A DNA stretch of 64,000 bases from an uncultured Lachnospira sp. (GCA_949002095.1 CARJMT010000007.1:6024-70023); one strand, 5' to 3'; shown: positions 16,081 to 16,141, counted from the first letter of the stretch. A program made the numbers and translations. The notes: generated by a model from the sequence alone, not told the origin.

Positions 16081-16141
16081 AAAAGCACAAACAGCAATCC
16101 ATTTTGGCTTCGACTTTTAATCGAATAATCAGAACGTGCTT
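16081..16141 (+). ncRNA. promoter-proximal structured RNA: AAAGCAC..GTGCTTT closing stem enclosing a tRNA-Lys anticodon-arm mimic
   Basis: inner hairpin TTCGA-CTTTTAA-TCGAA (16108-16124) differs from genuine tRNA-Lys(TTT) arm CTCGA-CTTTTAA-TCGAG only in closing pair; GCACAAACAGCAAT motif shared with 12462 and 17098. Confidence 0.4.

Follow-up and report, generated by a model that had tools for sequence, protein, structure and literature searches.

An ACAGCAA-motif RNA family with anticodon-arm mimics, genetically coupled to genes for predicted Ro60-like DUF2828 proteins in phages and gut bacteria

The phage tRNA array within a 64,000-nt stretch of DNA from an uncultured Lachnospira sp. (one strand; hereafter, the window) contains a 61-nt element whose central hairpin closely copies the anticodon arm of tRNA-Lys(UUU). 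A previous reading of the window from its sequence alone, with coordinates that lay 1 nt away (16081-16141), had described the element as a promoter-proximal hairpin and suggested that it may be either a decoy or a decayed tRNA-Lys remnant. Comparison with related phages and bacteria now places it in a strand-specific family of RNA elements with a conserved ACAGCAA motif, and it is probably a small non-coding RNA gene, the product of which would serve as the RNA subunit of a Ro60-like (Y-RNA-type) particle. Neither the motif nor the tight linkage of the family to a Ro60-like protein gene had been recognized earlier, and because of these two features a Y-RNA-type ribonucleoprotein provides the better frame for the element. 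The Ro60-like locus points to an RNA-protein particle acting in tRNA damage and repair; the role of the Lys mimic is less certain than the proposal of the particle itself.

The full element reads AAAGCAC-AA-ACAGCAA-UCCA-UUUUGG-C-UUCGA-CUUUUAA-UCGAA-UAA-UCAGAA-C-GUGCUUU. Its two ends form the 7-bp closing stem that had been reported (AAAGCAC at 16082-16088 with GTGCTTT at 16136-16142), the ACAGCAA heptamer (16091-16097) is unpaired in a bulge of 13 nt that interrupts the 5' strand, and a lower helix (TTTTGG at 16102-16107 with TCAGAA at 16129-16134) leads to the hairpin TTCGA-CTTTTAA-TCGAA (16109-16125) with its loop CUUUUAA (16114-16120). This succession of terminal stem, 5'-side bulge and distal helix is the stem-bulge-stem layout of Y RNA. 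The topology is also close to that of a tRNA acceptor/T minihelix: the 3' strand is unbroken across the closing stem and lower helix, the ACAGCAA bulge breaks the 5' strand, and the anticodon-arm mimic replaces the T loop. As had been noticed from the sequence, the hairpin is a near-copy of the phage tRNA-Lys(UUU) anticodon arm; 15 of 17 positions are identical, and both mismatches belong to the outermost pair, which is exchanged from C-G to U-A. The element starts 21 nt past a promoter that does stand where it had been placed (Table 1), and the order of element and then tRNA-Gln is repeated in the relatives L149 (on the same contig as L001), L169 and L193. Neither ARAGORN nor the Rfam model RF00005 calls a tRNA on the sense strand of the element, which has no D or T arm; a call of 'Phe aaa' made on the opposite strand by the mitochondrial mode of ARAGORN is an artefact. 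The single-sequence fold is not unusually stable (z = -1.33), and at 62069 on the minus strand chance has produced another 17-mer that differs from a tRNA anticodon arm by no more than two mismatches. The window by itself thus does not set the element apart from chance, and its significance derives from comparative data only.

Orthologues of the element are present in L258, L001/L149, L160 and L158. It is retained in L258, where the DUF2828 protein is 94% identical to that of the window, and in the syntenic relative L001 the 17-nt hairpin is unaltered. Candidate members of this Lys-type subfamily were then selected by sequence alone, as sites outside tRNAs with CAGCAA no more than 50 nt upstream of CTTTTAA. 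All five flanking pairs were formed at 12 of 22 such plus-strand sites and four of the five at 4 more, compared with all five at 3 of 359 CTTTTAA sites lacking CAGCAA; every paired Lys-type site also had a complete closing stem (7/7). Covariation was assessed with 33 condensed sequences from phages, metagenome-assembled genomes (MAGs) and isolates, among which about seven likely false candidates were deliberately kept. The hairpin cells of this set were paired in 86% of cases versus 55% in shuffles (0 of 500 shuffles reached 86%), and slid controls gave 26-47%; double changes numbered 55 versus 21.9 expected, and all five pairs covary. The check across relatives that had been proposed earlier is answered by about 26 diverged sequences from phages and bacteria, whose stems covary around an unchanged CTTTTAA loop. 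RNAalifold applied to ten full-length members recovered three helices, namely the closing stem, the lower helix UUUGG/YCARA and the anticodon-like helix, with compensatory changes at 7 of 16 pairs. A covariance model, R1, built from ten elements with this genome and its close relatives excluded, scored the window element at 65.7 bits (E = 1.8e-13) and also detected the elements at 14885, 12464 and 17097; on 80 phage loci, all 49 matches at E <= 1e-3 lay on the gene (plus) strand, upstream of the DUF2828 gene. As judged from these alignments, selection acts on the resemblance to the Lys anticodon arm.

A functionless tRNA-Lys pseudogene, decaying after duplication within the array, would account for the location near a true tRNA-Lys(UUU), the loss of D and T arms and the failure of both tRNA-finding programs on the sense strand. 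However, the same architecture recurs in the diverged sequences of phages and of bacteria or MAGs assigned to several phyla, and the model from which this genome had been withheld still finds the element. Because of the covariation, the invariant loop and the detection by R1, the decayed remnant of the sequence-only reading is excluded, and its probability is regarded as very small indeed.

The earlier suggestion of a conserved RNA element family was borne out on a scale far beyond the three copies on which it had been based. The motif GCACAAACAGCAAT has a perfect copy at 12467 and a copy with a single mismatch at 17100, the latter with the same closing stem and abutting a -35 box; five matches with two or fewer mismatches are found in the window versus 0.69 expected. 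Interspersed among the 29 plus-strand tRNA genes between 6.6 and 18.8 kb, the window holds at least 11 motif-carrying copies in addition to two or three divergent ones. For the wider comparison, 80 related phage loci (1.51 Mb) were fetched through their adjacent DUF2828 protein, and a loose descriptor (gap 1-8, length up to 200) that gave 363 background matches in control DNA (2.12 Mb, both strands) was tightened. A mechanical descriptor found 333 elements on the gene strand versus 54 on the opposite strand; those not exceeding 90 nt numbered 141 and 17, respectively, and of these short elements 70 and 3 have a hairpin in which 5 bp enclose a loop of 7 nt. The family is real and strand-specific. 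Its members share a recurring layout of a 7-bp stem, 2-4 nt, (A)CAGCAA, a variable interior and the complementary 7-mer, with the consensus (A)AAGRCRC-NN-A-CAGCAA ... GYGYCUU-(U)G, and the terminal stems vary between copies yet always pair. A megablast search of the region against GenBank phages returned no match, and a 16-mer scan of viral contigs gave mostly chance matches in coding DNA, which were reused as negative controls, together with the real loci L008, L070 and L080.

The distal module of the family is variable and tRNA-derived, extending from a near-complete cloverleaf, reached by bacterial members, down to no more than a long hairpin capped by an anticodon arm, as in the window element. 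CUUUUAA is the most frequent loop, and most of the other recurrent loops are likewise of the anticodon type (CU-NNN-AA), including CU-GGU-AA, CU-GUU-AA, CU-GUA-AA, CU-GCA-AA, CU-CCA-AA and others; the T-loops UUCGAAU and UUCAAAU are also present, and many members have no anticodon-like loop at all. Orthologues differ by single-substitution switches of the anticodon, with CUGUUAA in L269 versus CUUUUAA in L270 and L274, and CUUCCAA in the window member at 16233 versus CUUUCAA in L001. Such switches fit an evolving specificity.

In bacteria, a scan of genomes and MAGs for the RNA pattern found valid Lys-type structures in contigs whose assigned phyla are Bacillota, Spirochaetota, Bacteroidota and Patescibacteria, and the isolates carrying them include Clostridiales bacterium CCNA10 (AP018533.1), Dysosmobacter segnis BX15 and Lawsonibacter. 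In these contigs, arrays of 2-10 non-identical elements in tandem begin immediately downstream of a promoter, and no more than about 100 nt separate their ends from a DUF2828 homologue; across bacterial loci the number of tandem copies is 1-8, with as many as 10 in one MAG contig. When searched by the RNA pattern only, 13 of 17 examined genome contigs and the viral locus L070 had DUF2828 beside the RNA, and none of the chance-match control loci searched had it. The converse, RNA-blind test involved 80 metagenome loci fetched by the DUF2828 protein alone, 54 of which have at least 500 nt of upstream sequence. Elements were present within 1.5 kb upstream and on the same strand in 52 of these 54; their density was 22.1 per 10 kb upstream, versus 0.3 elsewhere and 0.3 on the other strand, and 172 of 191 CAGCAA motifs upstream of DUF2828 had a closing stem versus 13 of 184 elsewhere. 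In phages, the family RNAs are scattered among the tRNAs that immediately precede the DUF2828 gene; in the window, the tRNA array terminates at this gene and the element lies 2.7 kb upstream of it on the same strand. The ACAGCAA family is genetically coupled to the DUF2828/DUF7788 protein. Downstream of bacterial DUF2828, RtcB is encoded in 57 of 80 loci, and divergent WYL regulators are present in 39-41 of 80, giving the order WYL regulators, RNA array, DUF2828 and RtcB. Four loci, L234 (Dysosmobacter segnis, an 8-kb locus), L228, L238 and L243, have a divergent MoxR-like AAA gene and two WYL-domain regulators, then a terminator and promoter, followed by 3-6 tandem ACAGCAA RNAs, DUF2828 and RtcB.

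The description of the window element as promoter-proximal holds for the window and its close relatives L258, L149 and L124, to which this placement is confined; it does not hold as an essential property, given that in most relatives the Lys-type element has no promoter and occupies a tRNA slot, separated by 1-10 nt from the preceding tRNA and by 5-14 nt from the following one. Proximity to a promoter is incidental. This bears on the view that the family represents cis-acting leaders or punctuation of tRNA operons, be it as 5' stabilizers, as entry or processing sites for RNase P, Z or E, or as antitermination elements. Nine near-identical promoters are present in the window (8990, 9501, 9725, 10246, 11505, 14456, 14838, 16033 and 17168), and a family element follows four of them by 20-30 nt (14456, 14838, 16033 and, with a divergent copy, 9501); those at 9725 and 10246 precede looser tRNA-like or variant hairpins, and the bacterial arrays, too, begin directly after a promoter. 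A leader function is nevertheless improbable: the promoterless position between tRNAs predominates among the Lys-type members of relatives, the bacterial copies are tandem and non-identical, and a mere processing signal would not be expected to conserve specific anticodon-like loops.

The DUF2828/DUF7788 protein of the window is predicted to be Ro60-like. Its AlphaFold model (pLDDT 81.7) comprises an alpha-helical repeat ring followed by a vWA domain, and Foldseek returned as the top three matches the Ro60 of phage phiLo (E = 9.5e-5), Xenopus Ro, and Ro60 with pre-5S RNA; Ro60 was the best predicted-fold match in two independent searches. DUF2828/DUF7788 has at least 8000 database homologues.

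Ro60 is known to read conserved nucleotides on the 5' strand of the terminal stem and the bulge of Y RNAs, the remainder of which gates Ro60 or tethers it to other factors, and the bacterial YrlA RNAs are tRNA mimics (PMC4201824, PMC12135203). Like YrlA and YrlB with Ro60 (Rsr), and Yrl1/2 of phage phiLo (PMC4201824, PMC12135203), the ACAGCAA RNAs are small, same-strand RNAs adjoining a Ro60-type gene and are often present in multiple copies. They also share with Y RNAs a terminal stem formed by the RNA ends and flanking a bulge with a short conserved 5' motif, a distal module that mimics tRNA, and a frequent linkage to RtcB; the operon order of the bacterial arrays parallels rsr-yrlBA-rtcBA (PMC7790460, PMC4201824). 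They also differ from Y RNAs. The conserved motif is ACAGCAA and not GNCGAA (bacteria) or GGUCCGA (metazoa), the copy number is far higher (arrays of up to 10, or copies interleaved with phage tRNAs), and the closing stem occupies the position of an acceptor stem while a true anticodon-type loop is kept, whereas in YrlA the acceptor stem is closed and an anticodon loop is missing.

Several observations weigh against a Ro60-like particle. The neighbouring protein resembles Ro60 by predicted fold only, with TM values of 0.39-0.44 and 10-15% identity; Pfam assigned DUF2828, DUF7788 and a weak VWA_2 match with no TROVE match, and a phmmer search of the PDB with this protein found no match. The Ro-binding motif GNCGAA(N0-1)G was found within the first 30 nt of only 1 of 479 unique elements. 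A cmscan with Rfam (E <= 1) of window positions 6000-20000 and six bacterial loci placed nothing on the elements except RF00005 on some members of bacterial arrays (36-42 bits), and no Rfam Y RNA family matched the elements of these regions. The linkage to DUF2828 could instead mean co-regulation or a cis-acting leader. Finally, of 52 bacterial arrays and 81 phage loci, only about 11 and roughly 15, respectively, contain a Lys-type member, and for this reason the Lys mimicry is considered one option among several and not central to the system. In its proposed mode of action the family resembles Y RNA, yet it lacks the GNCGAA motif and has no match to an Rfam Y RNA model.

According to the proposal of a Ro60-like particle, the RNA would be excised from the array transcript in the manner of a tRNA; processing by tRNA-maturation enzymes is plausible given the tRNA-like slot and the minihelix-like topology. 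The Ro60-like protein would then be bound through the terminal stem and the ACAGCAA bulge, and the distal module may be displayed as a tRNA mimic. More speculatively, the mimic of the tRNA-Lys(UUU) arm might engage an enzyme that reads this loop, whereby it could compete with or bait an anticodon nuclease, or bring RNA ligase and end-healing enzymes to anticodon-loop damage. The idea of competition or baiting of anticodon nucleases was raised earlier for YrlA (PMC7790460), and it comes near the decoy of the sequence-only reading.

The mimic might also act as a free-standing decoy, with no protein partner, if it were abundant enough to titrate or inhibit a nuclease of the PrrC, RloC or PARIS AriB type that attacks tRNA-Lys. 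The loop and the loop-proximal pairs (GA...UC) are exactly those of tRNA-Lys(UUU) and are conserved, a strong promoter lies directly upstream of the element, other loops of the family are anticodon-like as well, including Asn GUU and Thr GGU, and orthologues swap the anticodon by single substitutions. These specificities recall the targets of PARIS AriB, which cleaves the tRNAs for Lys (UUU), Thr (UGU) and Asn (GUU) and is evaded by tRNA variants of phage T5 (PMC12409363). The T5-type tRNAs are similarly phage RNAs of tRNA arrays in which the anticodon arm is central, with overlap at Lys UUU and Asn GUU (PMC12409363), but they are complete and functional and replace the cleaved host tRNAs, whereas the window element cannot decode and has an additional conserved motif of a protein-binding type. 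A decoy of this kind leaves unexplained the invariant ACAGCAA bulge and AAG/CUU stem in members without an anticodon-like hairpin, as well as the near-obligate adjacency to DUF2828 in bacteria, which need no decoy against their own nucleases; moreover, a cleavable decoy must exceed cellular tRNA-Lys in number. It is considered an unlikely explanation, albeit one to be taken seriously.

With its acceptor-like 7-bp stem, canonical anticodon arm and tRNA slot in the array, the element might further be taken for a minimal, armless tRNA-Lys that functions in translation, comparable to the armless mitochondrial tRNAs. It lacks a T arm, a D arm and an encoded CCA, however, its first pair is A-U, the stem is followed by a G, the gene for a normal tRNA-Lys(UUU) lies 400 nt upstream, and many members of the family have no anticodon-like loop. 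Bacterial EF-Tu, the ribosome and LysRS all require the tRNA elbow, and the probability of an armless tRNA is negligible. Four further candidates were rejected: an attP or integration core, as the identity is restricted to the symmetric arm and the stem covaries; an intrinsic terminator, as there is no U-tract; a self-cleaving ribozyme, as there is neither an Rfam match nor any core motif; and the tRNA-fragment complexes of the AcrIIIA1 type, which are unrelated.

Small RNAs within a phage tRNA cluster are familiar from T4, whose species 1 and 2 (rnaC/rnaD) are small stable RNAs of unknown function that are processed together with the tRNAs of its cluster. We know of no relation in sequence between these and the element, of no ACAGCAA motif in them and of no Ro60-like partner. 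A second RNA for comparison is b7a-tRNA, a Band-7-associated, predicted tRNA-like RNA of RtcB-centred repair loci (Burroughs and Aravind 2016, via bioRxiv 10.1101/312249) that is said to swap occasionally with YrlA beside Rsr. A Band-7 gene occurs within 6 kb in 0 of 80 bacterial DUF2828 loci; the window does have one, about 5.4 kb downstream of its DUF2828 gene.

The features of the window are collected in Table 1. The genes between 22485 and 42441 have a theme of RNA-end healing and repair, and this neighbourhood is also found in related phages.

Table 1. Positions of the element, its relatives and associated genes in the window
Feature	Position	Strand	Basis	Remarks
Lys-type member of the ACAGCAA family, 61 nt	16082-16142	+	Sequence, fold, covariance model, orthologues	
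Phage tRNA-Lys(UUU)	15604-15678	+	ARAGORN, Rfam	Copied arm CTCGA-CTTTTAA-TCGAG
Sigma-70-type promoter	16033-16061	+		TTGATT-17-TATAAT, extended TG; drives the element and the tRNAs after it
tRNA-Gln(UUG)	16157-16229	+		14 nt 3' of the element
Divergent promoter-proximal relative	9559-9608	+		AAGGTTT-ACAGTATT ... AAACCTT; weak, motif variant
Family member, 121 nt	12464-12584	+	Covariance model, E = 1.1e-4	AAGGCAC-AA-ACAGCAAT ... GTGCCTT
Family member	13706-13822	+		AAGATAC ... CAGCAAAC ... GTATCTT-G; directly 3' of tRNA-Ser(GCU)
Probable family member	13916-14017	+		TAGGGTG-TAT-CAGCAATG ... CACCCTG; 2 nt past tRNA-Ser(UGA)
Family member	14504-14615	+		AAGAGACT-T-ACAGCAAAC ... AGTCTCTT-G; begins 20 nt past the -10 box of promoter 14456-14484; anticodon-arm-like hairpin and T-arm-like hairpin TTGG-TTCAAAT-CCAA
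Family member	14885-14951	+	Covariance model, E = 9.9e-6	AAGACAG-TTT-ACAGCAAT ... CTGTCTT; begins 19 nt past the -10 box of promoter 14838-14866
Family member with T arm	16233-16313	+		Anticodon-like loop CUUCCAA; L001 orthologue (loop CUUUCAA) has double compensatory changes in closing stem and T-arm-like stem
Family member	17097-17165	+	Covariance model, E = 7.5e-4	AAAGCAC/GUGCUUU stem identical to that of the 16082 element; 2 nt past tRNA-Arg(UCU), ends 2 nt short of the -35 box at 17168
Long family member	17961-18131	+		AAAGATAC ... CAGCAAAC ... GTATCTT-G; kept in L001
Long family member	18516-18649	+		GAGAGAC-GCC-ACAGCAAA ... GTCTCTC; kept in L001
DUF2828/DUF7788 protein, 498 aa	18819-20315	+		Predicted Ro60-like fold; proposed protein partner of the family RNAs
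PARG-like (macro domain)	22485-23255	+		
Metallophos, two genes	23269-23994, 37911-38705	+		
Band-7 (Band-7/flotillin)	25681-27231	+		
AAA_5	29167-30306	+		
MVP-like, 837 aa	30746-33259	+		Major-vault-protein shoulder and repeat domains
Thg1-like 3'-5' polymerase	35618-36508	+		
HD	40439-41053	+		
RNA ligase	41197-42441	+		Rnl-type with OB domain

Some further observations were made in and around the array. The promoter copies, of about 40 nt each (TTGATTGATTTTTTAAAAAATTTTTGATATAATATTTATAT), span 8990-17196, and most of those that drive RNA genes have either a family element or a looser hairpin of tRNA-like form directly behind them. One such tRNA-like structure (10281-10367) immediately follows the 10246 promoter. 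It is closed by the stem AGTTATT/AATAACT and further comprises a long hairpin and a T arm (GGTTCGAATCC); it does not carry the ACAGCAA motif and may be a divergent relative. The spacer of about 200 nt between tRNA-Gln(CUG) and tRNA-Asp (16396-16600; 1385-1590 in L001) is near-identical in L001 and has apparent compensatory changes (gcctggataaggcgagccggc versus gcgtggataacgctagctggc); it has no ACAGCAA and no Rfam match, and may be another structured RNA. A 119-nt match to RF00005 over the whole model (6750-6868) corresponds to a tRNA with a long insertion or intron, and a neighbouring tRNA-like gene with an insertion (about 6870-6990) has no ARAGORN call; a tRNA-Glu(CUC)-like gene at 10439-10512 was found by Rfam and ARAGORN -mt only. 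In the 143-kb contig L080 of a related phage, an insertion bearing an open reading frame seems to split a tRNA gene, and ARAGORN called a CUA-anticodon tRNA ('Pyl', amber-suppressor-like) and a tRNA-Cys(ACA); these features lie at 500-1050, 1410-1483 and 2199-2270.

Beyond the array, positions 22485-49894 hold a dense set of genes with an RNA and NAD theme that also includes NAPRTase and PIN-PhoH. The GenBank phage matches of the MVP-like protein are limited to regions of 37-38% identity in the huge uncultured phages LR756500, LR756501 and LR756503, and in 26 of 80 related phage loci an MVP-like gene is found no more than 10 kb from DUF2828.

In Rfam 15 and the literature searched, neither these RNAs nor a Ro-like nature of DUF2828 was found described, and the family is large and apparently undescribed. 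The protein-RNA pair is common in gut Clostridia, other bacteria and phages of 100-200 kb. The proposed particle would assign a function-linked RNA partner to the very large, uncharacterized family DUF2828/DUF7788, and would extend the principle of Ro60 and Y RNA to a second, sequence-unrelated protein-RNA pair; many 'spacers' of phage tRNA arrays would prove to be genes. It is tempting, if rather doubtful at present, to go further and propose that the Ro60-like DUF2828 particles of gut bacteria and of their large phages hold a variable set of anticodon-arm mimics (Lys UUU, Asn GUU, Thr GGU, Tyr GUA, Met CAU and others) that evolves by single-base switches and acts as protein-mounted nuclease baits or competitive inhibitors. 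Because these RNAs, unlike YrlA, retain anticodon loops of identifiable specificity, they make the long-standing idea of competition with, or sensing of, anticodon nucleases by tRNA-like Y RNAs directly testable, as both the RNAs and their predicted target tRNAs are specified. If the proposal is true, the mimic repertoire would provide a phage with an RNA-based counter-defence and a bacterium with a device for sensing and repairing damage, tailored, one tRNA at a time, to the circulating nucleases.
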